Below are positions 1,504-49,925 of a stretch of DNA of 64,000 bases, piece by piece. Under the pieces are notes generated by a model that saw only the letters and a list, made by a program, of their open reading frames with translations, did not search any database and was not told the origin of the DNA. Within the stretch, counting starts at the first letter, position 1. The number at the start of each line of letters is the position of its first letter. The stretch is from a virus: the IMG/VR virus record IMGVR_UViG_3300017917_003053, positions 64,001 to 128,000 of that record. One strand, given 5' to 3'. Made by a program: the position numbers and the translations under genes.

Positions 1504-1506
1504 AAT

Positions 1507-10513: not shown

Positions 10514-10552
10514 AAAGAGACTTGGGGCTGAATAAGCCCCTTGTCTTTTTTT
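10514..10552 (+). terminator. Rho-independent terminator after ssb
   Basis: GGGGCT-GAATA-AGCCCC hairpin, extendable by AGAC/GTCT, followed by a T7 run. Confidence 0.8.
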
Positions 10553-10557
10553 ATTCT

Positions 10558-12210: not shown

Positions 12211-13321
12211 AAACATACTATATATTGCTCCATATCGTCAAAATGATGGCTGGGGATTAGCCTCTAAAGATTGTTTGTTATCTTTGTTAACAACTCCAAA
12301 TGTTATTAGTGCTGTTCCCGTCTATCTAAATCATTCTGCTAGATGCGATATTACTAATCAAAAAATCTTAAAAGCCGAACAAACTAATTGTGATCACTAT
12401 GATGTGGTCATACAGGTGGCTTTACCAATGTCGTTGTCTTATAATGGAAACTATGGTAAAAATGTTGCTATGATTTTTTTGGAGAATAATAGATTATTTT
12501 CTGATAGTATCATGGCATTAAACAGAATGGATCAAATTTTAGTCTCTAGTACTAAAGAGATTAATTGTCTAAAAAATAGCGGAGTCAAGACTAAGATTAA
12601 TTCGATTATGCAGCCAATTGACACAGCATACATCAAAGAGTTTCCTGCAAAAAATCTTAGACTACAATTTAATGGGAAAAGCAGCGATGCTTATAAGTTC
12701 TATTATATTGGAGAAAATATACAACGTAAAAATATAGTAGATTTAATGACAGCATATTATTTAGAGTTTGATGAAACAGACAATGTATGTTTTATGCTAA
12801 AGACAAACTCGCCGGGACTGTCTGCACAGCAAGCATCTATTAAAATTCAACAAGAATTGACAGCAATACAAAAATCATTAAGAACTAAAAGAAGATTCCC
12901 TCAAGTGATTACTATTACTGAAAGGCTGTCAGACGATCAAATTTTTGGTATACATCAGGCTTGTGATTGTTTCGTAGTATCCTCTTTCGGAGAGGCTTTT
13001 TGTAGACCTGCGGCAGAAGCCTTATGTTTTGGTAACTATACTATTATGTCTGATAATATTGGTATCCAAGAGATGATAGATAGTAATGACTGTGGACTAG
13101 TATCTACACAAGAACAACCCGTAATTGTGAAAGATAGTACATATCTTGGAGGGTTAGATATGTATAATGCTGAAGAAACATGGTCTATACCCAGTATTTT
13201 AGATCTAAGAAAACAAATGAGAGCAGCCTTTGAAACCAAGGCACAAGTTGATGCTCAAAAATATCTGGATCGTTTTTCATACGAAAATATAGGATTAAAT
13301 ATATGTCATTGCATACAATAA
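12197..13321 (+). CDS. GT-B (GT4-like) glycosyltransferase
   Basis: DGWG, RKNI, CDCFVVSSFGEAFCRPAAEALCFG. Confidence 0.85.
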   Translation: MQTPKNILYIAPYRQNDGWGLASKDCLLSLLTTPNVISAVPVYLNHSARCDITNQKILKAEQTNCDHYDVVIQVALPMSLSYNGNYGKNVAMIFLENNRLFSDSIMALNRMDQILVSSTKEINCLKNSGVKTKINSIMQPIDTAYIKEFPAKNLRLQFNGKSSDAYKFYYIGENIQRKNIVDLMTAYYLEFDETDNVCFMLKTNSPGLSAQQASIKIQQELTAIQKSLRTKRRFPQVITITERLSDDQIFGIHQACDCFVVSSFGEAFCRPAAEALCFGNYTIMSDNIGIQEMIDSNDCGLVSTQEQPVIVKDSTYLGGLDMYNAEETWSIPSILDLRKQMRAAFETKAQVDAQKYLDRFSYENIGLNICHCIQ

Positions 13322-28100: not shown

Positions 28101-28933
28101 AAAGTAGCTTCGGATCCTTCTGGAACAGTAACTTTAATATTGTATTTAGAGCTTAATTTATTAAGTAAATCTTTTTTAGTAGTAATATAATTACCTTGGC
28201 CTATGTCAGAATATGTTTTGTCTGACATTCCAGATAATTGAGGATATAATAAGCCTAATGGTGTCCTTTCATATATTAGACCATTAGATGGACCGGATAA
28301 TGTTTCGGTGATTCTATCTATTTGTGGACCAGTTGCTAAAATACCAGCATTGATACTAGCTTGTGTTGTATTATATCCTGCACTCAATAAAGATGATTTG
28401 ATTGCTAGAAATGTACCGCTTAGATTAGGAGTAATCATTGGCTGATCATTAGCAATAGCCATATCTCCATCAGAAACATATAAATCAATACCTGGAAATA
28501 ATCTCAGTTCTTTTTCTGGTAAACGACCCATATCGTAGTATCTGTACCAAAATAATACTCCGCTAGTATAGGTTTTGCAGCCATAGTATTTTGTTAAGTC
28601 TATTGGCCAGTCTAAAGCTAATTGTAACTTACCTGTGGTTGTCCAATTTTTAAATTTGGGATTGTCTATTAAAACAAAATTTTTAATTCCTAATCCGTTA
28701 GGAGTAGATGATGTGCATGGATTATTATTGTTGGTATCAACTTTAGTCCATGTTTTTCCGTTAGCGTTATTAATAAATTTATTGAATAATACCGGTTGCC
28801 AAATTCCACTAAATTTAGCATTAAAAGCAGGAATCAGATTCTTTAGATCATAATTTAACGTTGTATTATTATCAAACGCAGTAGATAATTCGTTAATAAA
28901 TGTTGTGTCTTTGACCCTGCAATCGCAATCCAT
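22178..28933 (-). CDS. Giant (~2250-aa) putative tail/adhesion protein with Cys-rich C-terminal third
   Basis: Long ORF in the tail module. Starts MDCDC after a GGAGG RBS and has many CC/CxxxC motifs. Confidence 0.7.
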   Translation of the reverse strand: MDCDCRVKDTTFINELSTAFDNNTTLNYDLKNLIPAFNAKFSGIWQPVLFNKFINNANGKTWTKVDTNNNNPCTSSTPNGLGIKNFVLIDNPKFKNWTTTGKLQLALDWPIDLTKYYGCKTYTSGVLFWYRYYDMGRLPEKELRLFPGIDLYVSDGDMAIANDQPMITPNLSGTFLAIKSSLLSAGYNTTQASINAGILATGPQIDRITETLSGPSNGLIYERTPLGLLYPQLSGMSDKTYSDIGQGNYITTKKDLLNKLSSKYNIKVTVPEGSEATLKSNFQSTTGPNIQIKMETDLFLADKKQSTGYDIAVYLNNETKLEAVRSNEIFSVEQPPEEEGDDPTEIQYNINYVKYGNQIIGYNLSEKNSGVFKPDFDTIKLHGLGGVDFVTSLQRDVSCSSAINEETFIGPYFIQKDESPETMDGDPSNIFIKIKTHNNSQVQFSSGIFISYLRSESKPSCPPFISESSPTCKCFSLMDLHPNASGKAVLSNESGLLYVPSTSTFYMPSGQFYGGLTQQQVNSYGLILPSGHPNPGTRLPKTHSPIFPIGQNCSYKIEGCGDKNISLNFDYPAELFMSYESTSAHFKLSWQNDSIENEDPYFTSTAGALCLTKKNQSPTQVSIEIKVPPTGQGTQWAIEVSGVQQKYPKKSILTGLEVSGLKGFFHPNSGWTYDAKYHNLSPIVPIHNGLSIPSPSYAGGGSYSLYIRYSNTDGPCPGGHGCDRAKFNVFVNDVFIGVANLNNGGGPDDPGTVPGGDRTSVLTLPKKVRNKSGKTMDIFIQCAYEEGGCHGGIAWTQIIDDKGQKIFDSCIGTEVLVTIELAESINNYFYNAKAMYKEQYLPGYNFMYSTSGMTEQQKNKIDNSTYLGIKTEGNSYYVNNSFKKTKYNPIESMILENVPFEYINMDYAYGYAYNDFSFVRESGTDILQINSSSSNQNRMLNYIDDPFIREEKLTLVSSIDFNKKEQVTVVEILDTNKFRINKIPDERYYQRGYLYKTLDSSQYNQSIVIYRPNATELDNKLTIGKWGNMSYGYAAQMAQKYNDVDLYRQDLFLKQSWYGQPINDVWYNNSILRTSVSKNTSFTWGCPISFVNDYDKNKQTYFFPTVRLFDSLTDNERRKFQLLNYDKKLEITDNMYLSGDSIIAKGTVNNNKEWIYLGSITGPLTIKVKLNTQARNSGSLIFKYNNKQIFRGKAEDVNDDDEIVITYTKNDALPIYGELIAEGNSDFCIPIDVVIDVTASAKTFYIKEYTVLVDNVEVSDRSRISYYQHEPIPPALGQKLTSAVNNPNDKLYLEQSHIRSLNKDFNPFIDLNIFEEDNSKKPIISNSGTIYFEDFFQPKSFDYLYNKMPIPYNDNLYWIDIKENDSWSLLTSKNILLTTNTKYKIPKKIEYSCQGDSSTCSDRYPTNICEESYEITKADIYDILGLVGKDQQLLNITETSFPSQCNAINYCCKTEEECNSEDCDSYEKQADIDACLDRREACLSDREACLEKQEDKIKECRDFWFKDSKKDISCTDICPTGNITGTIQFQSLEYYIIELKKDIKPDLKTPKQVTFTFLPQSDSIDIPCTDLSFPNIGETFLYNYSCADATKECATIIPEDYSAGSQYIPGILVDLSAFKENVNAAQLNVLPSSVIMENESRYRDSVNHPNVISKPFYEYDPDSKSKYIISHSFDIKSKKCVGEGKLFTLSVDDLKCDFNLLDTASGLVIQSTCFNDIVVDPKTESSMTVYKTICEGKFDCDSSTLNPCVEGTDCQPYGCEEWSCEEAAEYLKSINANYELIKCEEITLPEDYYLSCRQCGDVNCNASISYSDPLPRECHCPPGTNLVGEPGFETCEYTYDILTIFPGNGQDYSDYEPDACDPITKTVKSFATPSCFGEIVGPTKEAMEAYEKACPKGTESVSRSSYQQVIYIDENGSNKAAHNLDLKAQEEDYRICCEYSKITKTYNDCFQSCSDQYKDCNNDSCSKAANACYCSCTSNFYNSINALALSRTVYYNCYGFCNTSDALSFGYGGYWCGFGWGGYCGEDSCIVSSTSAGGGCSPGQCCPDTGCDYNACADLEKRVKLQHWSTEYECKTNEDGWTSLNIKDGYSKCEKISAQLLETVKSSYKVLTRDVKSYFKQKLTLLSQKDKIASVSTVKVFNKEFKLTFKNHDDTNCSECADNEICCENKCIPEDEECCENKTDINLNIKFEIYDNVIIGILNNDEYNKIYHIRSSSFNCPKIDFKSEQEVYMCNNVTSECINCFAGAKDV

Positions 28934-28934
28934 C

Positions 28935-31900
28935 CTATCCTCCACAAGAATTTGTACTTGTTAAAATCCATTCGTTTTTCATAAATGTAAAAATACCAGG
29001 TTGATTATTAGTAGATATATCATAATTTAAATAGTTATTAAATTGTATAATAATTTGTTCTGGAGTTTCAGGTTGTCCTGTCACAGCATCAAAACCTTTC
29101 GCATAAGCATTGGATATTGTAGCTGTACCATCGCTATTTATTGTTCCTAAAGCCACAATATTTTGTTTGGATACTGGTTCATAAAATCCAGAAGCCTCAT
29201 CATAGTAACATGTAAGTTTAGCTCCTCTAGGAGCGCCATAGTTTTCGGTACTATCTCTTACGAAAACCATTCTACGTAAATTATTAGCTAATGGTGATTT
29301 CTTATCTGCACTATTTAAAAATGCTCTGGCAGGAAATGGTGGTACAAGATCGTCTTCTAATTGAATATCTACTAATCCATAAGGCTGAGGAGTGGTCCAA
29401 ACTTTTCTTGATGCATCCCATCTTAAATCAATAGGGCCAACCGGCCACATATCTGGTCTTAATCCCCAACCCTTATAAAAATTGTTTTCTTTAACGGGTT
29501 CTGTCCACTGACCTTTTGCAGCGTCCCATGTTTGATTTTTCCCTAAAATTGTACCTTGATAATTTTCATAACCTCCTGTTTGATCTTTTAAATCCTTAAT
29601 ACGTAATGGATATCCATTATCATTTAGAGATTTAGGTTCTCCTGACGCATTTGGTACTGGGAAACCATCAGTATCAAATCCCCATCCGGCCATTACCAAT
29701 GGACCACGAAGCGCTAAAAACCTATGATTATTTTGGAAATACTCTACCTTTTTATTTCCCATAGTTACTGTTGATTGACTTGTTCCAACTCTGCCTGTTG
29801 CAAGGTCAAAGGCTACGGAGTTCCAGTCTCCGTCACATAAAGAATTATTTTGATCTAAATACTCAAATCCATTCTGGTCTGAATTTAGATTACCATTAAT
29901 TGATAATGAGCCTAATGGAGGCACAACGCTTCGTCCAACAATGTCTATATGGTGAGCAGTATAGTCTGAGTCTTGAGCATATTTATTACGCAATTCTCCA
30001 ACTGGCATAATGATAGGATTTAAATTGACATAATCTATTTTCTTACCTTTAGTAGTAGAGAATAATAATTGTTTTAATTTATTAGGATCTTTAATAATAG
30101 TATTATCTGCTTTATCAGATAAAATATATGGAGGTAGTCTTCCATTAGAAGCCAAAGAGGTATCTGATTCTTGTCCCGCCACTATATCTGAGCAATAATC
30201 ACAATATAATGTCTTATCAAACCATGTATATTGTTTTGTTCCTCTACAAATTGGACAACCAGAAATTTTACCATCATTAGTGGTAACATATGGTTTATAA
30301 GGAGTAGTTGAACTAAGCATTGTCGGATAGAAAGATACCGGATGTAGCAATCCATCCAAACTCATAAACGCTTTGGTGCTATACAACTCATCAAATTCTT
30401 GCACAATTTCTCTGGCTTCTTGTATACCAACCGTTGTCATTTGTTTTATAGAATTACCTGACCATTGTGCATTATTATTGTTTGGAGTGGGGAAGAAAGA
30501 CATTCTCCCATTAGGTTCCATTTTTCTACTATAAAATGGTGCAGAATATCCCACCAGTACATTTGCTGGACTATAACTTCTTAAGATTGAGTCCGATGCT
30601 GTGCTCCATGAACCATTTACTCTTGTTCCGGTAGCCAAACCATTTAATATTTCTGATATCTTATTAAATGATTCTCTAAATTCTTTGTTCAATTTTAGAG
30701 TTGCTTCTGAAGCTTGTTTTATTCTGTCTGCATTCTCTTTATTGAAGAGTGTAAACTTTTTAGTGAATGTTCTAAAAGTATATGTTGTACTTGCTCCTCC
30801 ATCACTAATTTGACATTGTATATTACTAACTGTTGGACCTCTAAAAACAACTCCGGCTGCTTTTAATTCGGATCCCAAATTAATAAATGGCACACCTTTG
30901 ATAGTTAAATTGCCGGTCTCTAACTTTTGTTGATAATTGTTATCTTGTCCAACTGTTAATAAAGCTATTTCATCAAGAACTCTCATTCCTCCATATTTCC
31001 ATGGAACAAAATCTGAATTAATTTCTAGTTTTACTCCTCCAATTAATGTTTCAATTTTTTTATTTTTTATAGTATCATTATCGAAAGGGAAAATAACATT
31101 CTTTAATAGATCAGGAGCACTAACCCAAGGGCCATATACTGATGTGTTATCAATAATGGGAATACCAGCAAAAAACGGAATTGCCGCCTTTGGAGCTACA
31201 CTTAAATTATTGAATTGTTTATTAGCTTTATTCTGACTCACAGCATTGTCTGCATTAGCACTGGAAAATTCTTGTGCTGTTGGCCTTCTAAACATAGAAT
31301 TAGCTAAAGCATTAATAGCTACATCTGATCCTGTATCATTGTATTCATTAATAAAATAGTCTGCAATAGCAGCTTGTACTGATAAAGACTCAGGATTAAT
31401 AGGATTAATAAGTACTGGTTGATTAACAGAAATAATAATTTTAGGATATAATTGTCCATTATATAAATATGTTTCAAATTCTTTTTGTACAGATGACTTG
31501 ATATAGACTTTGGAGACTCCTCCTTGGCTTATTGGCACTTGAGTTCCGAATGGATCTGTCAAAGATTTATTAGGTTGTGGTATTACTACACTCTCTCCGT
31601 CTTTTAATTGAAGTGCTGGTTCCCAAAATCCTAAAGATATAGAATCATCTCCGGATAAACTCACTACTCTAGGATTGGCACCATATGTTGCTCCAAACTT
31701 TCTAGATATATCCCATTTCCACATATGAATAGCTTGCATATTAGCATATGTTTCTAGAGACATATCATAAAGTTTTTTATATAACTCTTTACTATAATTA
31801 TATTGGACTGTATTATTAAATCCTAAAATAGGTTCTATAGATCCATCTTCTTTTAAGAGAGGATCCAGATTGGAATTACCAACTCGTAAACTATCATCAA

Positions 31901-34526
31901 TCCAATTACCCGGTTCTTCCCATGCAAATTCTGTTGGTTCAAAAGAGTAATATAACTTTTGAGATCCTGATCGCAAATAGATGGGTTGGCCAGCGTCATT
32001 GGTGCCTATTTGTATTAATAATGGAGAGCCATTTGTTGCTCTAAATGGTTCATCATCTCTCCAAACTTGTGGAGATGGTACATTAACCATATATTTTTTA
32101 CCATAAAATTCATCACCAATCTTTTTAAAAAATGTCTGAAGATTGTTTATGATAGAATAAACCCGTTCATCGTTCAAAATAGATCCGTTAGGAGTAATTG
32201 ATACCGATTCACTACCATTTTGTTTAGTTGCTCCACTAATAGCATTAATGTTAAAATTTCTAGATAATCCAGAAACTAATCCCTTAATCCAAGGGTCTGA
32301 GAAGCTAGTATAAGGTGTTATAGCAGAAGCTGTTCCCGTAAAAATAATCGGACCAAGAACATGCTTCCAAATATCTATAGGAAATCCCGGTTTTAGAATA
32401 GAATTAAAGCAATCATATTTACTACCATCTTCTAACATGCCTGTAAGAAATCCCATGTAAGCATCCAAACCACTCATGGCTGCTCTAATTTCTGTTTCGC
32501 TAATTCTTACATAAAAATCAGAATTACTATACGATACTCCTATAGCAGCTCCTATCTCTGCTAAACTAAAATAAACTAAATATCCTACGCCACCACCGTC
32601 TGGAACGGATCCTAATCTAGCATTCATATTTTTATGATGATGACTTACTGGTCTAATATATCCAGTCAATGGATCATTACCAAAATAAGGACATATAGAA
32701 TCATGAATATATGAAGCGTATTCGTTGCCTCCGGGTAATGCAACATTATCTTGTCCAAGAGGCGTCACAAATGTTGTTTTTATATTGGGAATATAGTTGC
32801 CTACTGGCCTAGAGGTTCCTCCAAAAATACTAGCTTGTGTATTAAAAATTTGGGAATATATCTCTACTCTGCCAAAAGGTGTTGCTGGAGTTTGATATGC
32901 TGCTGAATAATGATCAGGATTTCTAATGTTGGTTGTATCAAAAAATCTGTAATACTGTAATACATTAGGATCATTAGCTGTTTGCGGATAATGGCTTACA
33001 TTCAAAAATGCATTTACATAAGCATTATATCTTAATGTGGACTGTTTTAGAGCATGTTTAAAATTAGCAACTTGATATAGTCTTTGCTGTTTACCGCCAA
33101 CAATAACTGTTCTGATCGGATCATTATTACCTAGTTCTTCTCCCTTAGAGTATGATGTAACCGATAGACCTTGATTGGCTATATCCGTAATAAATCCTTG
33201 AACAATATTATCCGGACTATTGGTGAGTGTATTGATGGAATTAATTTTTAGATATGGATAAATATTTTCTCCATCAATTTGCAATTGCATAGAAATAAAA
33301 ACAGATTGTCCAGTATTTTCTGCAATATTATTGATAAAAGTTAGTATATCCATCTTATTTTCTGATATGCGATAATTATATGGTATAATGCCATTATTAA
33401 TGATATCAGAAAAATCTAATCTGTATGGTATTAGATATAACTGGAGATTTAATTTGTTATAAGTAGCATATAATGACGGTTGTATAAGACCAAACCTGTA
33501 TTTTTCTTTACCTTCAGCCGATGACAATAAGAAAACATCGTTCAGTGTAGACTTAAATTTTGGTGGTTTACTGACAATTCTACCATATGGTGAATATCTT
33601 AATATCTTGTTTTTCTGATTAGTTATAGGAGCATCAGAGTTGATTAATCCATCTAATCCTGTTAAAACATTAATAGCAGTGATACCTTGTTCGCTGCGTC
33701 CAGATCTACCGTATGAATATAAAGAATCTGTGCCAGCAGGTTTGTTTCCATATTCATCGCAATGATCTTCTAAATATCCATATACATTAAAAAGATTGGG
33801 AACATTTTGTTCTGCGATAGCACCAATATAATTACCTTCTGACGCTTTGGGAAAACCAAACTCTGTGCCAAATTGAGACCCAGCAGATTTAGAAAAAACT
33901 GCTCCGTTATAATCTCCCAAAATCATTTGGGATTGAGTTAATAAAAATGATGGTGCTTCTATATTAATTGAATATGTTAAAGTTCCAGATGATCCTCCTG
34001 TTCTCTCCCAACTTTTGACAATACCATGAAATTCAAAATCGTCATATTTAAAATATACTGCACACCCTACTATATCCACACTTCTAGATAAATCTATATT
34101 TCCATATATATCTAAAATTTCTCCATAAAATCCAGGATCAGCATCATACCAATATCTGGATACTAATTTTCCATTATATGGAATATAATATACTTTTCCT
34201 GGAATTAAAGAATTACCATTTTCATCTTTTTCAAAAGTATTGCTTCTTCTTTTATTTGTATAATCGTCATATGCTGTAGGACCGGGTCTTAATACTGTAT
34301 TTCCATTAATATTTGTTAATTCTGGATATATACATTTATCTACTGCTATTTCTACAGATAATTTACTGGCTTCGGTTCCCCATGCTAATGAAGCATTAAA
34401 AGATCGTATGCTGCCTCCTAAGAATAGCGTCTGAGCATAAACTTTAGCACAACAAATATTGTATGTGGATGATGATCCACCATTTTTTCCTTCAACGTCA
34501 AAAGTTGTTTGACATATAGTTACCAT
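28935..34526 (-). CDS. Large tail-tip/baseplate hub-like protein (1863 aa)
   Basis: Lies downstream of the TMP. Beta-rich N-terminus (FLGGSIRSFNASLAWG, FEFHGIVKSW) and a CPIC...CDYC knuckle. Confidence 0.6.
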   Translation of the reverse strand: MVTICQTTFDVEGKNGGSSSTYNICCAKVYAQTLFLGGSIRSFNASLAWGTEASKLSVEIAVDKCIYPELTNINGNTVLRPGPTAYDDYTNKRRSNTFEKDENGNSLIPGKVYYIPYNGKLVSRYWYDADPGFYGEILDIYGNIDLSRSVDIVGCAVYFKYDDFEFHGIVKSWERTGGSSGTLTYSINIEAPSFLLTQSQMILGDYNGAVFSKSAGSQFGTEFGFPKASEGNYIGAIAEQNVPNLFNVYGYLEDHCDEYGNKPAGTDSLYSYGRSGRSEQGITAINVLTGLDGLINSDAPITNQKNKILRYSPYGRIVSKPPKFKSTLNDVFLLSSAEGKEKYRFGLIQPSLYATYNKLNLQLYLIPYRLDFSDIINNGIIPYNYRISENKMDILTFINNIAENTGQSVFISMQLQIDGENIYPYLKINSINTLTNSPDNIVQGFITDIANQGLSVTSYSKGEELGNNDPIRTVIVGGKQQRLYQVANFKHALKQSTLRYNAYVNAFLNVSHYPQTANDPNVLQYYRFFDTTNIRNPDHYSAAYQTPATPFGRVEIYSQIFNTQASIFGGTSRPVGNYIPNIKTTFVTPLGQDNVALPGGNEYASYIHDSICPYFGNDPLTGYIRPVSHHHKNMNARLGSVPDGGGVGYLVYFSLAEIGAAIGVSYSNSDFYVRISETEIRAAMSGLDAYMGFLTGMLEDGSKYDCFNSILKPGFPIDIWKHVLGPIIFTGTASAITPYTSFSDPWIKGLVSGLSRNFNINAISGATKQNGSESVSITPNGSILNDERVYSIINNLQTFFKKIGDEFYGKKYMVNVPSPQVWRDDEPFRATNGSPLLIQIGTNDAGQPIYLRSGSQKLYYSFEPTEFAWEEPGNWIDDSLRVGNSNLDPLLKEDGSIEPILGFNNTVQYNYSKELYKKLYDMSLETYANMQAIHMWKWDISRKFGATYGANPRVVSLSGDDSISLGFWEPALQLKDGESVVIPQPNKSLTDPFGTQVPISQGGVSKVYIKSSVQKEFETYLYNGQLYPKIIISVNQPVLINPINPESLSVQAAIADYFINEYNDTGSDVAINALANSMFRRPTAQEFSSANADNAVSQNKANKQFNNLSVAPKAAIPFFAGIPIIDNTSVYGPWVSAPDLLKNVIFPFDNDTIKNKKIETLIGGVKLEINSDFVPWKYGGMRVLDEIALLTVGQDNNYQQKLETGNLTIKGVPFINLGSELKAAGVVFRGPTVSNIQCQISDGGASTTYTFRTFTKKFTLFNKENADRIKQASEATLKLNKEFRESFNKISEILNGLATGTRVNGSWSTASDSILRSYSPANVLVGYSAPFYSRKMEPNGRMSFFPTPNNNNAQWSGNSIKQMTTVGIQEAREIVQEFDELYSTKAFMSLDGLLHPVSFYPTMLSSTTPYKPYVTTNDGKISGCPICRGTKQYTWFDKTLYCDYCSDIVAGQESDTSLASNGRLPPYILSDKADNTIIKDPNKLKQLLFSTTKGKKIDYVNLNPIIMPVGELRNKYAQDSDYTAHHIDIVGRSVVPPLGSLSINGNLNSDQNGFEYLDQNNSLCDGDWNSVAFDLATGRVGTSQSTVTMGNKKVEYFQNNHRFLALRGPLVMAGWGFDTDGFPVPNASGEPKSLNDNGYPLRIKDLKDQTGGYENYQGTILGKNQTWDAAKGQWTEPVKENNFYKGWGLRPDMWPVGPIDLRWDASRKVWTTPQPYGLVDIQLEDDLVPPFPARAFLNSADKKSPLANNLRRMVFVRDSTENYGAPRGAKLTCYYDEASGFYEPVSKQNIVALGTINSDGTATISNAYAKGFDAVTGQPETPEQIIIQFNNYLNYDISTNNQPGIFTFMKNEWILTSTNSCGG

Positions 34527-40412: not shown

Positions 40413-43400
40413 TTAATACCCTTCGTTTTGTCTGCTCTTTTGATCAAATGCGTCTCTAATTGCTCTTTGAACCAGATTTCCTAATGGTCCATTCAGAACA
40501 TCAGCAAGTACTGAAGCTCCATTAATTGTAACATTCACAGGAATTGGTGATGGAACCTCCAATGTTACAGTTGATGGTATAGCATTTTGCAGTTGTTCGA
40601 TAAATCGGTCTAGTCTGTTACCAAGTGCCTCTATACTGACTGATGGATTGATCTGATTATTAGATACACCGTTTGTGCGAACCTGTGTTGGATCAGGACC
40701 GGTTTCAGAGAGATTGTTTAATTTTTTAACAGCATTCATAAATGCCAGATTAAGACTCTCTGCACCCTTCTTGAGAATATCCGATAAATAGGTCATATTT
40801 GAATCTAAGGCAGATGTTCCCTGTGTACCATCGGCCAAATATGCTACTCCACCCTTAGAATAATAACCGTTATTGATAGACTGTAATAAACCTAAATGTT
40901 TTTGAGAAGCTTGTCTATTAACTACAAATTCTCCTGGGCTTAACATAGCTGGAACTGTGTCTGTTCCTTTTGGTTGATATGGAACTATTGTTCCACCATT
41001 AGCATAAATTGTTCCTCCGCGTTTTCTATATTGAGCAGGAGATAGGGTTGGGTTATTAAATCTTCTTATTTTTTCTTGTTCATATGATCGTTTTGCCTGA
41101 TCTTTTTTATCTTGAGCTAAGAATGATGCTTCTTCTTTTCTCCAGTCTGCAAAAAACTTTAATTCATCTTGTGTAGGATTGGCTCCTTTTCTTCTGGCTT
41201 TTTCTTCTTCAAATCTTTTGCGAGCATCTTCTTTTGCCTTTTGAGCATCTTCTTTTTTCCAAATAGGATCCCAAGTTGATAATACCATCTTACTTTTTTG
41301 ATCGATATCTGCTTGATTTCTTCTTCTTTCCATCTCTTTATCATTTGCAACTCTTCTATCATTTAATGCTTTGTCTCTAGGAGTTTTGAAAGGAATATAA
41401 CTGCCACCTTCGACATAAATTACACCTCCTTTATTAAAATAACTACGATCAGGCAAACTACTTGGATTAAGAGCATCAAATACGGTGCTAGAATCTCTTC
41501 TCAATCCTTCTGGAGGAGGACCATTTTCAAATTTTGTTCCATCCCATTTCACTCCATTTTTAATAGTTCCCCATACTCTATTTATAGCTGTTATTTCTTC
41601 TGTAGCTCGTTTATTTTGTACTCCAAGTACCTCGGCTGGTAATAATCTTGTATTCTTACCATACTGCATTTTACCATCTTGAGTATTAAAGGTTGGAGCC
41701 CCTCTACCCAAGCGTATTCCAAGACTGGTATTATTTTGAACTTGTCTTAAATAATTTTCTCGTTTTGTAGCTTTTCTGTATAGTTCACCAATATTAGCTC
41801 CTTGATTAATTTTTGAAAAAATATCTTTTACCTTTTCTCTATCATTCAACGTAGTGTTAAATGCATCAGGACCAAATAAATTAGGAGCTTCCATCATTTG
41901 ATCTTGTAATTCTGCAACTAGTTTTTCTCCAAAGTTTTTACTTTGTTCTTGACCAACTAAATAATTAATTTTAGGAATAATTCTATCAATTCCTGGTTTG
42001 TACCCATTTACTTCCTCTTTAGCTCTTAAAGATGCTTCTCTAATATTTTGTACTCCAGAAATTTCTCCTACATAATCACCTCTGGGAGTTAAAATAACAT
42101 AGTCGCCTGGTTGTGCTTTTTTAAATGCTCTGTTGAATCTTTGAGAAACAATAGATCTTTGGAAGTTAAGAGGACTTGGATCTACTCCTCCGAGTCTTCC
42201 TCCATCAGCATAATATCCCGAATTGATAGCTTGTAGCACACCTAAATTATCTTTAGTAGATTTTGCATTCACCACAAACTCACCGGGACTAAGCATAGCA
42301 GGAATAGTGTCTGTGCCTTTTGGTTGAAAATTAATATATTTTCCATCAGCAGCATATACTATACCACCAGTGCTCAAAGCTCTAGAACCTTTTATAGTTT
42401 CTGATAATCTATTGAGATTTCTGCCCAATGCAGAAAATTGTTGGTTATTAGTAGTTTGATTTTTATCAATAGATGTATCTAATGATGGAATCTGATTATT
42501 TTTAGTACTTAGAGTAGTACTATTTATAGTTTGAGATAATCCTTTAACGCTGTCTATTTTATTACTTAAAACAGTTTGGTTGATCAGGCCGCTTCTAGCC
42601 ATATCTTGCTGTTTAGCTTTATCTGTTCGTTCTGATACTCCAGAAAGATCTGGTTGACCGCCAGCAGCAAGGTAATTAATTTTTCCTCCTCTGCTATTAT
42701 TAATTGCTGTTAATAAACTAAGATTATCTTTTGTAGATTTAGCATTAACAACAAATTCTCCTGGACTGAGCATGGCTGGTATAGTATCTGTTCCTTTGGG
42801 AACAAAATTGACATACTTACCATTTGCAGCATAGACTAAACCACCAGTAGCAAAACCTCTACCTCCTCCGCCCTGTGGAGCAGCACCTAATCTGATTGCT
42901 ACATCATTCATAGCCTTAACAAAAGCTTCTTGAGTTTTTGCTAAACTATCTAATATGCTTTTACCAACTTTTTCTAATAAATCTTTTTGAATATTTCTAT
43001 CATTTTCATTTTGCAGTCTAACTGCCTCTACCTGAGCATTTTTCAACTCGTCCATGCGAGCTTGTAAAGCCTTTAATACTGGATCATTCTTTGCTCTATC
43101 TTCTGGATTTTGTCTTAATGTTGCTAATAATTTTTGGAAGAAAGGATTTCTCTCTAGACCAGCGCCTTGAGCCCTTGCAAAATTTTCTAACAAGTCTGCT
43201 TTCATTACATCCAATTCTGGGCCGTCCACTCCAGCAATTTGAGTTAATTCGCCAAAGAGTCCTAAAGCTTTTTTGTTTTCATTGGCAAATGCTGTTTGAG
43301 CATCGCTCATGGCTTCTTGAGCTGTCTTTCCTTGTTGAATAGCCTGTACATATGCTTGTTGTGCTACCTGGGATTGTTGAATAGTAGTAATTTGTCCACT

Positions 43401-46400
43401 TAATGTACTATTTAATAAATTAAATGTTTGTGATAGTTCCATTAATTCTTGTGGTGTACTACCAACTAATTTCTCTGCAAATGCGCCAGATGCTTGTTTT
43501 TGTGATTCCAGTTGAGAAACTCGTTTTTGCATTTCTGATGTGACATCGCTAATGGCTCCCTCTAAAGCACCTGGGAGATTTTCTAACTCTTTGGTAGTTT
43601 TATCTATGGTTGAATTAACTTTTGCAAGTTTTAATTGTAGATTAGCAACTTCTTTAGCTGCTGCTGGATTAACAGAAACTTCTGATGATTTTCTATCTAT
43701 TTGAGCTTGTAGTGCTTGTTGTTCTTTTTGAGCACGAGATCTCATATTAGCTATATTTTGTGGAGTAAAATCTCCTTGATTCTGTATTCCTAATCTAGCT
43801 CTGTTTCCAGCAAAACGAGCATTGATCCTTTCGCCTATAGAGACTTTTTGACCTAATGCTTCTTTTGTAGATAAACCACTCTGAGCTTGCATTTCTATAA
43901 GTGCTGATGTTCTATCAGCCCTTCTCTGCTCAATTTCTACTACTCTTTCTGCTACCTTGCCTAATTCATCTAGATGCTTGGCTACATTTTCATTGTTCTT
44001 GATAAGTAATTGTCCAGCTTGCTGTGCAGCTTTGTTTAATGGACCAGCAGCTTTATCTATTAATTCAGAAGGATCTATAGTAGTTCCAGCTTCATTTGCT
44101 TGTTTAACAGCTTCATCTACGGTATTTCTAACTCCAGCAACTAAAGTTTGTGCCATACTACTATTTGGCCCAAATGTAGCTAATATATTATTAGTTAAAC
44201 TGCGAGTTACTGATCCTCCAATATCTTCATTACTACCTCCAGCATTGTATACTGCGTTTGCATCTCTATTGGCTTGTTCTGTTGCTCTCGCTCCAAATTC
44301 AGCAACTTTGCCTACTAGTTGTCCTGATGTACCCATTCTAGCAGCAGAATTTGTTATAGCCGCTTGTCTTTCTCCAGCAGAATAAGCATTTGGATTTTGT
44401 AATACATTATTTGTTCTAGATAAAGTTGAACTAGTTAATGATGCTTTTCCACTAAAAATTTCATCAGCCTTATTGCCAATTTCACCTAATTCAAAACTGG
44501 ATCTATTTAATACTTCTTCCATAGCATTAAAAGATTTTTCTAAGCTAACAACAGCTTGCATCATTACTACAGAAAGTTTCTTAGAAGCTTCTGCTGCGGC
44601 TTTTGCTTGTGCGGCAGCGGATGCCTCAGCAAGGGATCTTTTAGCAATGCTTTCTGACATTACCGCTAATTCTTTATTGGTTTCTGCTTGTAAAGCGTCT
44701 GCTTCTGCTCCTCTTCCACTATCTCTTAATTTTTTAATTTCGTCTGCTCTTTGAATCTGGAATGTAGCATATCTTTCATCCGCTTCAGCAATATTAGATG
44801 TTAGCATCTTGAATTGATCAGGACTCATAGTTTTACTAACCTGATCAAAGGTTTTCCCAGTTCTCATCATTTCTTGAACTAAAAATTGTTGAGCTTGATC
44901 AGCTCCAGACTTTTGTGTATCTGCTCTTCGTTTTCCTGCGTCCATAGCAGTCTCGTCTGCATAGCCAAACATTTTACCAAATGTACTTGCTCTTTGTCTC
45001 TTTATTCCTGCTCCCGCTGAGGCTTCAGCAGATGATGCATCGCTGAAGGACTTAAGAAATGAGTTTCTTCCTGTAACGTTTCCAGGATTAGTCATATATG
45101 CTTGCAGAGCTTTACCGCTTTTATCTGTTGCTGTTTGAGATGCCGCTATCTTTTGACTCTGAGCGTATTCTTCATTAGCTTTTTCTGCTTCTCCAATACC
45201 CATAACAAAACCAGCTAATGCTCCTGTTGCTGCTCCGATACCTGTGCCAAGAGGACCAAACATACTGCCAACAGTGGCTCCTATAGAAGCCATATTAGCA
45301 ACACTACCTCCTATGGCCGCTGTTGATCGTCCTGCCTCTGTCTTTTCTCCTCCCATAGCCTTAGATATAGCATCAACGCCTAATCCTCCAACCATTGTGA
45401 GAGCCATACCAGCCATACCAAATCCACCACCTCCACCAGCACCGCCAGCCCCTCTGCCTCCAGAAGCAAATCTTCCTAAGCCAATAGCATTAAGTGCTCC
45501 TCCTCCTATACTGCTAATCAATCCTCCAGCACCTCTGCCAGCAGCCATAATGCTAGATTTACCAACTTGTAATAGGCCTGTTCCAGCATTTTTTGCAGCC
45601 TGTGTTAGCATCTGCAACGGATTAGTTGCACTTTTAAGACTTGCTGCAAATTGAAGTCCGGCATTAGACATATTAGAAACGCCAGATGTCATGCCCATAA
45701 CATTTGACCTACGATCAACAACATCTTGTCCTCTTTGATATTGTCCAACATTACTGGCTATTTGATCTATTCTGGCCTGACTAGCGGCAAAGCCTGTTGG
45801 CCCAACAGGACTTCTTACTGGTCTACTTTCTGTTGTTCCTGTGGCTAAGTTTGTTGGGCTTGGTGGTCCAACTGGAGGCGATGATCCAGCATTAGCAACT
45901 CTGACTTTTTTGCCTTGTCTACTTCCACCTCCTCCGGATTGTGCTAATGTAGCAGCTTCTGTAGCAGCAGCATTGATATCCGAGGCTCCTTTTTCTAATT
46001 TAGAAGTAAAGATTCTCATTGCTTTTAACATTTGGTCTGTTGGTAATCCACTTACCATAGACTCTAAAACATTGAAAGCATCAACATTATCCATGATGGC
46101 TTTACTGAGTTTTGCTGTGTCTTTTGGAGATAATCCACCCAAAGCTGGTGTTAGTTGAGCGGGAAAACCTCCAGCAGCAAACTTTTGTATGCCTCCAACA
46201 CTACCTCCCTTATTAAATCCTTGAATTTTATCTGCTCTATTTAATTGATGAAGTCTACTTGCTCCTATTCTGCTAGCAGCTTTTTTATTGATAACAAATT
46301 CACCAGGAGTTAATAGTGCAGGAACAGTGTCCTGTCCTGATATTCCTCCTCCTGTTGCTTTTCTTTTTCTTGTTTTGGTTTTAACTGCTGGAACAAGATT

Positions 46401-49400
46401 AGGATTTTCAGCAAATAAAAATCTATCTACTTGATTCAAAAATTTAGGTATTCCCTTGCCTCTTTCACCCTTTTTACCGGTATCTCCTACTGTTCTTGTG
46501 GCATCTGTTGGTATCATTGGAGGTATACCAAATAAAGATGCTAATTTAGTACTTAATCCTTGGCTAAAGTCAATAGCTTTAAATTCTTTAGATGAGTATG
46601 GATTACCAGCTACTCCTATAGCACCCTCTAATGCTGCTCCGATTACTCCTTCTACGCCAGCATCTTTCATAATTTTTTCGATGACTGGGCCGGTCTGAGG
46701 AACAGCACCAATCTGTTGTGCCATGCTTGATCCTACTCTAGAAATAGAATCTTGGAATCCTTTAATGATATCGTCTTCATATTGAGAACTAAAATTAGAA
46801 GGTAATACTCCACCCCATACTGTTACTTTATTACCTTTTGGAGTAATTTTTGGAGCACCAGCAACCGGAGTGCCGTATAATCCTACTAGTCCTACTGGGA
46901 TACCTGCTTGTTGTTCAGCGTCTAGGGGTACTTGAGAAGAATTTTTCTCTAATAATTTTTTAATTTCAAGTTTTTTAGCTTCTTTTTCTTCTTTAGACAT
47001 GCTCCTAATTTTACTACTACTATATTGTTGTTTAAAAGCAGAATTAATTTTTCCTGCTGTCACACCACCACCATTAATAAATCTGGACACTCTGGATGCT
47101 CTCGGACCTTTTGATCTCATAGCATCATATGCCTCTTGTTTACTTCCTCCTCCTGTAAATATCATATTGCCAATTGGAATGCCGAATAATTCATTAATAT
47201 ATTCTGCAAGTCCTGGGGTTCTTTTGGATTTACTAATAATACTTAAATTAGAAGGATTAACTTGTCCATCTTGAATAGATTTTTGAAGCATTCTACCAAA
47301 CTGGGTAAGTCTGGCATTTTTTGCATCTTCTAGTCTATTGGTAGGATCTCTGAAGTATTTAGATAATACAGCATCTTTTTGTCCAGAAGTTTTAGCTTTA
47401 CCATATGCGGCATCTCCAACAGTACGTTTTAGGGTTCTATCAAAATCTAATGCACCATAGCCGCTAGCAAGAATTTTGTCTAAAGCTATTTTGTTTGGTA
47501 ACATAGCTCCAGCAGCATTAGATGTTATATCATCTACTAATGGAGCATTTGCAAAACCACCTTTAGCAAATTGTTCAACATCCATCCATAAATTTTTATT
47601 AACACCTAATTTAACGAATTTAGTTTTATCAACTCTAAATTTTGATCCTGGTCTTAGGATAAATTCATCTTCACTCTCTGGTGGATTTTGATATAATGTT
47701 TGTCCAGTAATATTGTCTTTTTTAATACCTCCTCTAACTGCTGTTCCTTTTAATTGCTCAACAACATCTACTCCTTTAGCTCCTTTTTTAGTCTTAATAT
47801 TCATCATAGCGGCCCAATTATCTTCAGATCTTTCTGCATTATCTAAAAATATTTTGGCTTTAGCAAAATCTTTACTTGTTGATACAAAACCTGGGAGACG
47901 AAAACTTTTACCAATAATTTTCATCGTTTCTTGAGAATAATATTTCTCTTGATCAAAAAAATTGGTTCCTTTTGGTATGGCTGGATTTTTATTTAATCCT
48001 GTCTGCATAGCCATCATATCAAATGCTGATCTAGAAATAGAACTATATAGTTGTTTTGGAGCAGATGTTCCTAGTGATCTTAGATCTTTTGTTTCTTTAG
48101 CTAGTTGACTTCTTTCAGTTTTAGACAGATCTTTCTTTCTAGAAAATCTAGTATTGTCGAAATCTCCACGATAATAATTTTGTAATGTATCTTTGGCTTG
48201 TCCTCCATTAGCATATCTGTTCATTCTATGAAGATTGCCTACACCGATAGCTTTTACAGCATTTTTTCTTATAACAAATTCCCCCGGAGTCAACATCGCT
48301 GGAAATGTATCAGAGTTACCTTCTCCTGGAACAACACCTCCAGTAGCAAAACCTCTAACAAATCCACCATTGTTTTGACGGCGTAAACCTCCTGCAAAGC
48401 CAGCACCAAAGCGAGTTAAAGCAGAGACTCCTCTAAAAGCTGCAATGGCAGTTAATGCTGGTAATACTGTCTTAGCGCTATCTGCTAATCTGATAAGAGC
48501 ACTGGCTAAATCTAAACTTAATCTAACGAATGTTTGAAAAGTAGCACTTTCTCCTAATGATCTGATTAGTGCTGTAAATTCTTCTCTAACTTTTGTGATT
48601 TGATTTGCTAAACTTAATTGTGCTGTTGCAGCATCCTTGGCTAATGATCCTTGCCCTTGTTGTGCCACCTTCAATGCCGCCTGTGCTGTGGCGAATTGTT
48701 GGATAAGAGGAATAACTTTACCAATCTGACGGAAACCACCAAGTTCTTCAACAATTTGACTGAATCTTAAATCTCGTGGATCTAATTTACTTAAACCATC
48801 ACTTAGTCTACGTACAGCTTCATACGGTCCAACGAATTTTCCTTCTAAATCAGTTAATGTTACTCCATATTGTTTTAGAGCATCTATAGTATCTTTTCTT
48901 TGAATACGAGTAAAAATAGTTCTTAAACCGGTAGCGATAGTTTCTGCACTTTCACGGGTTGTAGCACGAACACTTGTAAATACTGCCAAGAATTCATTTA
49001 ATGCATCTTTGCCTTCACTAACCCCTCTACTAGCTGTGGCAAACACACCACCAGTACGTTGAATAGCTGTAATTAAGTCACTAGCTTCTACAGCAAATTT
49101 TGCAGCAACAGCGTTAACACTACCTAAAGCATCTTCGAGTTGTCCTGCACTAATACCAAACTGTCTCATCAAAGCAATAGAACCTTCTACAGTATCTGAT
49201 AAACTATCGAATGATGGAGCTAGAGCACTTAATGCCAAAGCTTTAAGGGCTTTCTCTGTATCTTTGGCTGTTAAACCCGCCTGAGCTAATGTACTAGATA
49301 CCGTAATTAAATCTTTAGAGGCTATGCCAAGGCCAGTAGAAAGACTAGTGATTTCTTTTACTAATGGACTTAACTGTGATAAACTAGAATCAGTAACTTG

Positions 49401-49925
49401 TGCCACTCTAACTAACTCTTTATTGAATCCGATAAATTCGCTTGTGGCGGATGAAAGAGCATTGGTGAACTTGTATATTACCCCAGTAACCGTAGCAAAC
49501 GCTGCGAATCTTCTTACTGCTAATGCTGACTGTCTACCGAACTCTTCAAAACCTGTGGCTGTCTGATTCAAGGTTCTATTAGTTTGAGTTAAAGTATTAT
49601 TGACATTTCCTGCACCAGCGTTAATTCTATTTAAATTTCTGGGTATATTGCCAATGTTGTTATTTGCTGCTGCGGCTGCTCTTCCAAAAGCACTTAATGA
49701 TGCTGCGGCATTTCTGGCTGCATTTTGTGTAGCATTTAAAGAAGTATTTAGTCTGTTGATAGATTGTTGTAAATTGTTAACATTTCTAGTAGTATTATTA
49801 TTGATATTAACATTTACATCTGCTGTAATACCAGATAATTGTCTTCTAATATTCGCAATTACTGGTCTGATATTTGCAGGACCTCTTAAATTTAATTCTG
49901 CGGTTAGATTAAATGATCTAGACAT
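40413..49925 (-). CDS. Tail tape measure protein (3170 aa) with inserted enzymatic domains
   Basis: TP901-type core (ETIATGLRTIFTRI, GGFRQIGKV), Gly/Ala hydrophobic segments, coiled coils, and position after the tail chaperones. Confidence 0.9.
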   Translation of the reverse strand: MSRSFNLTAELNLRGPANIRPVIANIRRQLSGITADVNVNINNNTTRNVNNLQQSINRLNTSLNATQNAARNAAASLSAFGRAAAAANNNIGNIPRNLNRINAGAGNVNNTLTQTNRTLNQTATGFEEFGRQSALAVRRFAAFATVTGVIYKFTNALSSATSEFIGFNKELVRVAQVTDSSLSQLSPLVKEITSLSTGLGIASKDLITVSSTLAQAGLTAKDTEKALKALALSALAPSFDSLSDTVEGSIALMRQFGISAGQLEDALGSVNAVAAKFAVEASDLITAIQRTGGVFATASRGVSEGKDALNEFLAVFTSVRATTRESAETIATGLRTIFTRIQRKDTIDALKQYGVTLTDLEGKFVGPYEAVRRLSDGLSKLDPRDLRFSQIVEELGGFRQIGKVIPLIQQFATAQAALKVAQQGQGSLAKDAATAQLSLANQITKVREEFTALIRSLGESATFQTFVRLSLDLASALIRLADSAKTVLPALTAIAAFRGVSALTRFGAGFAGGLRRQNNGGFVRGFATGGVVPGEGNSDTFPAMLTPGEFVIRKNAVKAIGVGNLHRMNRYANGGQAKDTLQNYYRGDFDNTRFSRKKDLSKTERSQLAKETKDLRSLGTSAPKQLYSSISRSAFDMMAMQTGLNKNPAIPKGTNFFDQEKYYSQETMKIIGKSFRLPGFVSTSKDFAKAKIFLDNAERSEDNWAAMMNIKTKKGAKGVDVVEQLKGTAVRGGIKKDNITGQTLYQNPPESEDEFILRPGSKFRVDKTKFVKLGVNKNLWMDVEQFAKGGFANAPLVDDITSNAAGAMLPNKIALDKILASGYGALDFDRTLKRTVGDAAYGKAKTSGQKDAVLSKYFRDPTNRLEDAKNARLTQFGRMLQKSIQDGQVNPSNLSIISKSKRTPGLAEYINELFGIPIGNMIFTGGGSKQEAYDAMRSKGPRASRVSRFINGGGVTAGKINSAFKQQYSSSKIRSMSKEEKEAKKLEIKKLLEKNSSQVPLDAEQQAGIPVGLVGLYGTPVAGAPKITPKGNKVTVWGGVLPSNFSSQYEDDIIKGFQDSISRVGSSMAQQIGAVPQTGPVIEKIMKDAGVEGVIGAALEGAIGVAGNPYSSKEFKAIDFSQGLSTKLASLFGIPPMIPTDATRTVGDTGKKGERGKGIPKFLNQVDRFLFAENPNLVPAVKTKTRKRKATGGGISGQDTVPALLTPGEFVINKKAASRIGASRLHQLNRADKIQGFNKGGSVGGIQKFAAGGFPAQLTPALGGLSPKDTAKLSKAIMDNVDAFNVLESMVSGLPTDQMLKAMRIFTSKLEKGASDINAAATEAATLAQSGGGGSRQGKKVRVANAGSSPPVGPPSPTNLATGTTESRPVRSPVGPTGFAASQARIDQIASNVGQYQRGQDVVDRRSNVMGMTSGVSNMSNAGLQFAASLKSATNPLQMLTQAAKNAGTGLLQVGKSSIMAAGRGAGGLISSIGGGALNAIGLGRFASGGRGAGGAGGGGGFGMAGMALTMVGGLGVDAISKAMGGEKTEAGRSTAAIGGSVANMASIGATVGSMFGPLGTGIGAATGALAGFVMGIGEAEKANEEYAQSQKIAASQTATDKSGKALQAYMTNPGNVTGRNSFLKSFSDASSAEASAGAGIKRQRASTFGKMFGYADETAMDAGKRRADTQKSGADQAQQFLVQEMMRTGKTFDQVSKTMSPDQFKMLTSNIAEADERYATFQIQRADEIKKLRDSGRGAEADALQAETNKELAVMSESIAKRSLAEASAAAQAKAAAEASKKLSVVMMQAVVSLEKSFNAMEEVLNRSSFELGEIGNKADEIFSGKASLTSSTLSRTNNVLQNPNAYSAGERQAAITNSAARMGTSGQLVGKVAEFGARATEQANRDANAVYNAGGSNEDIGGSVTRSLTNNILATFGPNSSMAQTLVAGVRNTVDEAVKQANEAGTTIDPSELIDKAAGPLNKAAQQAGQLLIKNNENVAKHLDELGKVAERVVEIEQRRADRTSALIEMQAQSGLSTKEALGQKVSIGERINARFAGNRARLGIQNQGDFTPQNIANMRSRAQKEQQALQAQIDRKSSEVSVNPAAAKEVANLQLKLAKVNSTIDKTTKELENLPGALEGAISDVTSEMQKRVSQLESQKQASGAFAEKLVGSTPQELMELSQTFNLLNSTLSGQITTIQQSQVAQQAYVQAIQQGKTAQEAMSDAQTAFANENKKALGLFGELTQIAGVDGPELDVMKADLLENFARAQGAGLERNPFFQKLLATLRQNPEDRAKNDPVLKALQARMDELKNAQVEAVRLQNENDRNIQKDLLEKVGKSILDSLAKTQEAFVKAMNDVAIRLGAAPQGGGGRGFATGGLVYAANGKYVNFVPKGTDTIPAMLSPGEFVVNAKSTKDNLSLLTAINNSRGGKINYLAAGGQPDLSGVSERTDKAKQQDMARSGLINQTVLSNKIDSVKGLSQTINSTTLSTKNNQIPSLDTSIDKNQTTNNQQFSALGRNLNRLSETIKGSRALSTGGIVYAADGKYINFQPKGTDTIPAMLSPGEFVVNAKSTKDNLGVLQAINSGYYADGGRLGGVDPSPLNFQRSIVSQRFNRAFKKAQPGDYVILTPRGDYVGEISGVQNIREASLRAKEEVNGYKPGIDRIIPKINYLVGQEQSKNFGEKLVAELQDQMMEAPNLFGPDAFNTTLNDREKVKDIFSKINQGANIGELYRKATKRENYLRQVQNNTSLGIRLGRGAPTFNTQDGKMQYGKNTRLLPAEVLGVQNKRATEEITAINRVWGTIKNGVKWDGTKFENGPPPEGLRRDSSTVFDALNPSSLPDRSYFNKGGVIYVEGGSYIPFKTPRDKALNDRRVANDKEMERRRNQADIDQKSKMVLSTWDPIWKKEDAQKAKEDARKRFEEEKARRKGANPTQDELKFFADWRKEEASFLAQDKKDQAKRSYEQEKIRRFNNPTLSPAQYRKRGGTIYANGGTIVPYQPKGTDTVPAMLSPGEFVVNRQASQKHLGLLQSINNGYYSKGGVAYLADGTQGTSALDSNMTYLSDILKKGAESLNLAFMNAVKKLNNLSETGPDPTQVRTNGVSNNQINPSVSIEALGNRLDRFIEQLQNAIPSTVTLEVPSPIPVNVTINGASVLADVLNGPLGNLVQRAIRDAFDQKSRQNEGY
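40827..41021 (-). repeat. TMP PGEFV module, copy 5
   Basis: RGGTIYANGG...PKGTDTVPAMLSPGEFVVN...YYSKGGVAYLADG. Confidence 0.9.
42198..42377 (-). repeat. TMP PGEFV module, copy 4
   Basis: LSTGGIVYAADG...PKGTDTIPAMLSPGEFVVNAKSTKDNL...YYADGG. Confidence 0.9.
42657..42854 (-). repeat. TMP PGEFV module, copy 3
   Basis: FATGGLVYAANG...PKGTDTIPAMLSPGEFVVNAKSTKDNL...YLAAGG. Confidence 0.9.
46167..46361 (-). repeat. TMP PGEFV module, copy 2
   Basis: KATGGGISGQDTVPALLTPGEFVINKKAASRIG...FNKGG...FAAGG. Confidence 0.9.
48201..48350 (-). repeat. TMP PGEFV module, copy 1
   Basis: FATGGVVPGEGNSDTFPAMLTPGEFVIRKNAVKAIGVGNLHRMNRYANGG. Confidence 0.9.

Follow-up and report, generated by a model that had tools for sequence, protein, structure and literature searches.

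What is a domain resembling an ADP-ribosyltransferase (ART) doing in the middle of a phage tape measure protein (TMP), and can it still be an enzyme if the arginine of its active site has been replaced? This question is raised by a segment on the minus strand, at 47571-48200, of the DNA studied here (hereafter the window: 64,000 nucleotides, bases 64001-128000 of the 153,002-bp IMG/VR record IMGVR_UViG_3300017917_003053, which CheckV rates as complete). An earlier interpretation made from the letters alone (the sequence-only reading) had described the segment as an ART-like insert in a TMP. In our structural model the segment is predicted to adopt an R-S-E-type ART fold. On balance, we favour a tail-delivered, active and arginine-directed ART with an atypical site for nicotinamide adenine dinucleotide (NAD+), which would serve early host takeover or anti-defence. 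On this reading, the cassette is a self-contained ART inserted between Gly-Gly-ended linkers of the TMP, in a large uncultured siphovirus-type phage.

The cassette, its carrier protein and its fold

The carrier is a tape measure protein. Its open reading frame (ORF) is one open frame of 3170 amino acids (aa), which matches PhageMin_Tail (PF10145, E 1.2e-22) and the TMP families 28, 4211, 1533 and 167 of PHROGs. The gene is preceded by genes of 342, 106 and 290 aa, and on related contigs genes of 343 aa, ~100 aa and ~290 aa likewise lead to the TMP. The PF10145 match, the PHROGs and this syntenic tail module confirm the location inside a TMP that had been proposed at first. The features of the carrier and of the cassette borders are the following.

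40413-49925, minus strand: TMP ORF that carries the ART cassette, supported by PF10145, the TMP PHROGs and tail synteny.
48741-49355, minus strand: PhageMin_Tail core domain of the TMP, residues 191-395 (81.2 bits for a Pfam cut-off of 33.2).
48201-48350, minus strand: first copy of a repeated module, found by motif scan, running from FATGG through DTFPAMLTPGEFVI to RYANGG and ending in the YANGG boundary.
48201-48215, minus strand: YANGG, boundary directly before the cassette.
47571-48200, minus strand: ART cassette (P0001), TMP residues 576-785, predicted from a PF03496 match, an AlphaFold2 fold, Foldseek and VIA-align matches and 17 homologues.
47556-47570, minus strand: FAKGG, boundary directly after the cassette; homologues keep a Q-Q-[FY]-x-x-GG end.

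The cassette comprises 210 stop-free residues, and the two pentapeptides directly flank it, so that an insert of about 210 aa bounded by YANGG and FAKGG was correctly delimited by the sequence-only reading.

The first line of evidence for the fold comes from profile searches. The window copy matches PF03496 (ADPrib_exo_Tox) with E 3e-4 and 20.6 bits over profile positions 93-191, i.e., the half that runs from STS to ExE. The Pfam gathering cut-off for this family is 23.4 bits, and it is passed by four of ten orthologous cassettes (33.1, 31.3, 28.5 and 23.8 bits), with a profile coverage of about 21-190. Weak PHROGs matches point to a family of ART-bearing head proteins and to the Bxa ART. A phmmer search of 1.84 billion representative sequences returned 17 relatives (E<=1e-37) that are 49-62% identical to the window cassette, and nothing else down to E 1e-3. 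When PDB sequences were searched, neither the domain, the family profile nor one of the orthologues found a match at E<=10; another orthologue found a marginal one, to the ART-fold effector XopAI (E 0.02).

The second line of evidence is structural. The cassettes of ten relatives were taken from their DNA and aligned with the window copy (alignment A1, 11 sequences), and this alignment served as input for AlphaFold2. The model of the cassette has a mean predicted local distance difference test (pLDDT) of 83.5 and a predicted template modelling score (pTM) of 0.78. Against the PDB, Foldseek gave 131 matches at E<=0.001, and all of the top 50 listed share the ART fold; among the matches listed are C3, C3larvin, Plx2A, VIP2, iota Ia, CDTa and Certhrax, together with the ART-like domain of anthrax lethal factor. 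All 50 best VIA-align entries are ARTs as well, and the alignments to CDTa (2wn6) and iota Ia (1giq) reach Z 14.0 with a root-mean-square deviation (rmsd) of 3.0-3.1 Å over 161-163 residues, spanning model residues 1-210. BFVD gave ModB and ModA of T4-like phages as best matches, along with ARTs fused to MuF or portal proteins. From these data, the predicted structure of the cassette is an R-S-E-type ART fold of the Alt/VIP2/C3 lineage, a fold that combines N-terminal helices with the NAD cleft of a split beta-sandwich. The ART-like domain put forward by the sequence-only reading is thus supported; that reading had named a failure to predict an ART fold as the outcome that would overturn it, and AlphaFold2 and Foldseek do predict this fold.

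The best structural matches are C3-type and binary toxins (iota Ia, CDTa, C2-I, VIP2, Certhrax), with Z 12-14 and rmsd 3-4 Å over ~160 residues. The cassette shares with them STS and a second Arg after STS, and its ExE is that of the arginine-specific binary toxins. In contrast, identity to these toxins is only 13-19%, and the cassette is without the beta1 Arg, without a secretion signal or binding component, and has a longer loop before ExE. Since the cassette lies in a phage tail protein, a bacterial target would be expected.

Catalytic residues and the beta1 arginine

The residues on which the assignment of an activity depends are listed below, with domain numbering.

48030-48053, minus strand: predicted beta1 strand and start of the next helix, QLYSSISR, residues 50-57; hhalign places it on QLYRGISK of ModB, with S53 at the canonical Arg position.
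47874-47882, minus strand: STS motif, S107-T108-S109, within FVSTSK (47871-47888), aligned with S-x-S/T of ModA and ModB.
47829-47831, minus strand: R124, candidate second Arg (phosphate-nicotinamide loop), 15 residues past STS, invariant in 23 close cassettes.
47673-47738, minus strand: long loop before ExE, residues 155-176, at the position of the ADP-ribosylating turn-turn (ARTT) substrate-recognition loop, of low pLDDT and of varying length and sequence.
47664-47672, minus strand: ExE motif, E177-D178-E179, within ESEDEF (47661-47678), aligned with E-x-E of ModA and ModB.

STS, ExE and QLYSSI (48036-48053) had all been pointed out before, with coordinates that are right to within one codon. 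In the loop, pLDDT falls below 50 at residues 155-163 and 166-176, and both length and sequence differ among cassettes.

For the alignment with enzymes of established type, T4 ModA and ModB plus six ModB relatives were assembled into a second alignment (A2), and A1 was compared with A2 by hhalign. Three motifs fell in register: AP.QLY-S-S-IS with P.QLY-R-G-IS, GFVSTS with the S-x-S/T strand, and E-x-E with E-x-E. The overall similarity is marginal (E 1e-3, probability only 20%), but we trust this alignment because three independent motifs are in register. ModB alone gave the same pairing of beta1 with the cassette, with 8 identities out of 18. Thus, domain residue S53 (TMP residue 628; QLY-S53-S-IS) aligns with R73 of ModB (QLY-R73-G-IS). 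The corresponding residue of ModA, R72, represents the R of R-S-E (PMC8120803, Table 1), so that here, unlike in ModA and ModB, the canonical Arg is replaced by Ser53. The sequence-only reading had warned that the conserved Arg may be lost, and this caveat proved justified, with Ser at the aligned position and no Arg there in any TMP cassette of the family.

In R-S-E enzymes, the Arg serves to position NAD+, STS to stabilise the pocket and the Glu to drive catalysis (PMC8120803). The last two elements are strictly kept in the cassettes. We compared 26 TMP cassettes, of which 23 are close to each other (40-99% pairwise identity), the full set reaching down to 22%. S107, S109, E177 and E179 are present in all 26, and T108 in 25. 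These catalytic residues account for four of just nine invariant positions among the 210, a result that random placement would give with P = 1.6e-6. The conservation of STS and ExE down to such low identity favours an enzyme over a pseudo-enzyme. Also, R124 is found in 23 of 23 close cassettes, and the three divergent copies carry an Arg 13-14 residues past STS. In CteC, S97 is followed by a second, beta-phosphate-binding Arg, R113 (PMC10810742); by its spacing after STS, we infer that R124 may be the equivalent of this residue.

The ExE motif, as opposed to QxE, is typical of arginine-modifying ARTs, and the DNA-directed R-S-E enzymes Scabin and SCO5461 have Q-x-E (PMC8120803). The presence of ExE in the cassette therefore makes arginine the likely acceptor.

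With the Arg replaced throughout this clade and STS and ExE strictly kept, the cassettes offer a natural experiment on the need for the R of R-S-E.

A candidate enzyme in the tail lumen

In siphovirus tails, the lumen of the tube is filled by the TMP, which is ejected into the host envelope before the DNA follows; it is the one protein certain to exit the virion first. We hypothesize that the cassette would be carried in the tail lumen in a non-native or not fully folded state, would enter the cell at infection and would refold after ejection. It would have to reach the cytoplasm, because NAD+ is unavailable elsewhere. There, STS and the second Arg, R124, would bind NAD+ together with the hydroxyl of the Ser or Thr that has taken the place of the old Arg, and E179 (with E177) would transfer ADP-ribose to arginines of host proteins. 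Such an early act of host takeover or anti-defence would resemble the action of T4 Alt, but with the tail rather than the head as the vehicle.

Several observations weigh against this reading. The window copy taken alone stays below the PF03496 cut-off (20.6 against 23.4 bits). The canonical beta1 Arg is missing, although it positions NAD+ in R-S-E enzymes: position 53 is Ser in 24 of the 26 cassettes, Thr in one and Asn in one, and Arg in none. R30, R57 and R124 are candidates for taking over from this Arg; of these, R57 was rejected as a universal stand-in, since P0017 and P0035 have Ser at its position and the two copies of P0107 have K or D. By analogy with CteC, whose R65A mutant has no activity (PMC10810742), the loss of the beta1 Arg argues against normal ART activity. 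Also, a folded domain of 23 kDa, in at least three copies, would be hard to fit in the lumen of the tail tube, which is why unfolded storage has to be assumed. Finally, with the ART on the N-terminal side of the hydrophobic segments of the TMP, entry of its part of the protein into the cytoplasm would not be a matter of course.

45186-45431, minus strand: Gly/Ala-rich hydrophobic segments, residues 1499-1521 and 1556-1580, C-terminal to the ART, from a Kyte-Doolittle scan.

These segments may be the membrane-inserting part of the TMP. The whole 3170-aa protein contains zero cysteines, which fits a protein that crosses the periplasm or travels unfolded.

The idea of a virion-delivered ART is not new. 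T4 Alt is an ART injected from the virion (PMC8120803, PMC5512222), and the known virion-borne phage ARTs comprise Alt, internal to the head, VIP2-like domains fused to MuF or portal proteins, and the H-Y-D ARTs of polyvalent proteins (PMC5512222, PMC9503650, PMC7302621, PMC9206674). Thus, phage ARTs acting at infection are known only as head cargo. The cassette has the fold of Alt, ModA and ModB (the best BFVD match is a ModB, E 2.6e-8), and three motif regions including ExE co-align with them. It shares with Alt the placement in a virion protein, which makes it a candidate for delivery at infection. However, Alt is head-internal and ModA and ModB are free early proteins, whereas the cassette is internal to the TMP; as this is a tail component, packaging in the head as an internal protein does not apply. 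MuF-VIP2 fusions and polyvalent proteins also join an ART to a structural protein of the virion, and they are read as cargo coinjected with DNA (PMC5512222, PMC9503650, PMC7302621). The TMP further resembles polyvalent proteins in that one polypeptide combines several exchangeable modules. The differences are that the carrier is a tail tape measure and not a head MuF or portal protein, no MuF being found in the 153-kb genome, and that Pfam detected no zincin-type peptidase in the TMP. More generally, peptidase families, including the zincin-like one that usually separates the effector domains of polyvalent proteins (PMC5512222), gave no Pfam match on the whole TMP or on its segments.

Enzyme-bearing TMPs form another point of comparison. 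TMPs with embedded cell-wall hydrolases include Tmp of mycobacteriophage TM4 and Pb2 of T5. In SPbeta YomI/CwlP, as proposed for the window TMP, a globular enzymatic module is part of the TMP and is presumed to be active on expulsion. Nevertheless, the modules of these proteins cut peptidoglycan outside the cytoplasm, while the ART cassette would need NAD+, which implies cytoplasmic action. An ART in a tape measure would show that the tail lumen can also carry enzymes directed to the cytoplasm, and it would bear on what portion of a TMP gets into the cell and how far that portion is folded.

Two systematic surveys make no mention of tape measure proteins. The main surveys describe siphoviruses as rare users of the NAD/ADP-ribose toolkit, and one systematic survey found an NAD/ADP-ribose network in only 16% of siphoviruses. 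No description of an ART inside a TMP was found in the literature, represented for the most part by titles and abstracts. The enzyme lineage and the strategy of a virion-delivered ART are therefore known, and what is new is the TMP as carrier together with an atypical active site.

More tentatively, this reading may extend to the giant TMPs of a large, uncultured phage group as effector carriers of the tail lumen: an active ART with a Ser/Thr-S-E catalytic arrangement not described before would be injected before the DNA, freed at the Gly-Gly boundaries, and would modify host proteins. If true, this would constitute a second route of effector delivery by virions, tail-based and distinct from that of head-packaged Alt and MuF proteins.

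The alternative that survives best, and that we regard as possible without finding it probable, is a pseudo-enzyme: the cassette would keep the ART fold, perhaps bind NAD or a target, and transfer nothing, serving as a structural, spacing, docking or channel-plug module. The Arg missing from all 26 cassettes speaks for it, since Arg-to-Ala mutants of related enzymes are dead (PMC10810742), as do the score of the window copy under the Pfam cut-off and the inactive ART folds, such as that of anthrax lethal factor, among the structural neighbours found by Foldseek. The weak sequence match to XopAI, which we take to be a non-canonical ART, points the same way. However, known pseudo-ARTs (domain 2 of anthrax lethal factor, the N-terminal domains of VIP2 and iota) have lost their catalytic motifs as a set, whereas here the Arg alone is lost and the second Arg is kept. 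The STS serines and both Glu of ExE account for four of only nine invariant positions, and the old Arg site is restricted to Ser, Thr and Asn. This limitation to small hydrogen-bonding residues points to a site that was remodelled rather than decayed.

It is less likely that the cassette is an active NAD+-using enzyme with another reaction or target, such as an NAD+ glycohydrolase or a transferase whose acceptor would be nucleic acid, a small molecule or part of the envelope instead of protein arginine. A change of substrate could go together with the altered NAD-positioning residue and with the longer loop at the ARTT position. This loop is presumably ~30 residues longer than in the iota and C3 toxins, if the motif spacings of iota Ia are as we take them to be. 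R-S-E enzymes acting on DNA or RNA are known (PMC8120803, PMC12340436). Against such a change, the first Glu of ExE, a signature of arginine-directed protein ARTs, is invariant and the closest folds modify proteins; an envelope target would moreover lie where NAD+ is not available, outside the cytoplasm.

We consider very improbable a role in the producing cell, where the enzyme would modify host or phage proteins at a late stage of infection or while tails are assembled, its location in the TMP being incidental. The TMP is indeed made late, in a cytoplasm that contains NAD+, and searches of the whole 153-kb genome for Macro, ARH and NADAR found no ADP-ribose eraser, so that an activity there would be unrestrained. 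But the cassette was found only in TMPs and never free-standing, a confinement that would be unexpected for a late cytoplasmic enzyme, and the known phage ARTs fused to virion proteins are all read as delivered cargo (PMC5512222, PMC9503650). Lastly, a chance combination of motifs in a non-globular stretch of the TMP can be rejected with hardly any doubt: STS and ExE are short and common and the TMP is long, but the ART-fold model is confident, the Z 14 matches run along the whole segment, orthologues pass the PF03496 cut-off and 17 homologues are 49-62% identical.

Mobility of the cassette, neighbouring modules and genome context

The 17 relatives found by phmmer all lie inside proteins of 835-5762 aa (16 of 17 of at least 1917 aa), in syntenic tail modules. 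A profile search for free-standing relatives of 110-375 aa found none, and a scan of viral contigs with the single domain found no relatives. The start of the cassette varies among relatives from residue 549 to residue 1751. The TMP core itself has more than 2129 giant relatives (1743-5548 aa, E<=1e-10), on contigs of up to ~230 kb. ART cassettes were present in 8 of 114 newly listed relatives of the core; these came from the 120 best-scoring of the more than 2129, so this proportion is not a census. Position and order vary between TMPs, and most close relatives of the TMP are without the cassette. For these reasons, sequence comparison indicates that the ART cassette is an accessory, mobile module, confined to giant TMPs among the relatives found. 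As the cassette moves within a family that counts more than 2000 giant TMPs, tail cargo modules open to exchange probably form a large pool that is still unexplored.

The nearest TMP relative, P0026, illustrates this modular build: it is 90% identical over residues 1-578 and 66% identical over 1186-3170, and has a different sequence, with no ART, between these two blocks. The middle regions of the TMP relatives (P0003-P0139) are mosaics of shuffled cassettes.

Three divergent cassettes, with 22-27% identity to the window copy, were found, one in P0105 and two in P0107; P0107 scores 31.6 bits against PF03496. The two cassettes of P0107 (3965 aa) lie at residues ~1480-1680 and ~1930-2170 and have the motifs LYTG/STS/ENE and LYSG/SSS/EGE. 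The same protein has a weak match to a cytidyltransferase-related region (PF16581, E 4e-4).

The motif aromatic-x-x-Gly-Gly occurs 15 times in the window TMP. It stands at both ends of the cassette and closes all five GxDTxPAxLxPGEFV modules, which are copies of a ~45-aa module, GxDT[FIV]PA[LM]L[TS]PGEFV[IV]...GG, at TMP residues 542, 1202, 2383, 2542 and 2992. This PGEFV module may be a common linker where cassettes are exchanged. In the DNA of copy 1 (~48256-48313), 58 bases match at 83% a gene of Synechococcus phage S-SCSM1 annotated as lysozyme/endolysin; this stretch of the repeated PGEFV module was the only match in the DNA search.

A second cassette follows directly on the ART in the window TMP.

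47061-47555, minus strand: neighbouring cassette, residues 791-955, with an invariant DxDRT, adjoining the ART in 7 of 18 TMPs, on either side.

It comes after the ART in the window TMP and P0006, and before it in P0005, P0011, P0014, P0015 and P0018. Its invariant stretches are G.LDxDRT, SIISKS and FGIP..NM.FT.G.SK. We considered it as an eraser or immunity partner of the ART, and found no Pfam match and no Atlas lead (best score 0.78). Its AlphaFold2 model has a pLDDT of 74; Foldseek indicates a weak likeness to HAD phosphatases (E 0.02), and VIA-align gives generic receiver- or Rossmann-like matches (Z<=6.6). The Macro, ARH and NADAR search covered the MuF families as well, and the TMP cassette is the sole PF03496 match in the 153-kb genome.

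Among cultured phages, the TMP core matches TMPs of Rhodococcus phages and of Bacillus SPbeta-group phages at only 24-28% identity. The SPbeta-group TMPs among these matches are annotated as lytic transglycosylase (SPbeta YomI/CwlP). A tblastn search of the ART domain against 50,697 phage records gave no match.

The 153-kb record also codes for DnaB and for a split DNA polymerase III alpha. The latter occupies two ORFs, 5774-7651 (+) and 8509-10065 (+), separated by ~850 bases with other ORFs between; the first ORF encodes the PHP and NTPase domains, and the second the finger, HhH and OB domains. The replication-side block further contains two neighbouring GT4-type glycosyltransferase genes, 10522-13321 (+), one of which also matches, below the cut-off, the family 'GT4 in conflict systems'. 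Downstream of the TMP, the tail module at 22178-34526 (-) holds two more giant ORFs of 2255 and 1863 aa, and neighbours of the TMP relatives reach 3878-3947 aa with weak FG-GAP matches.

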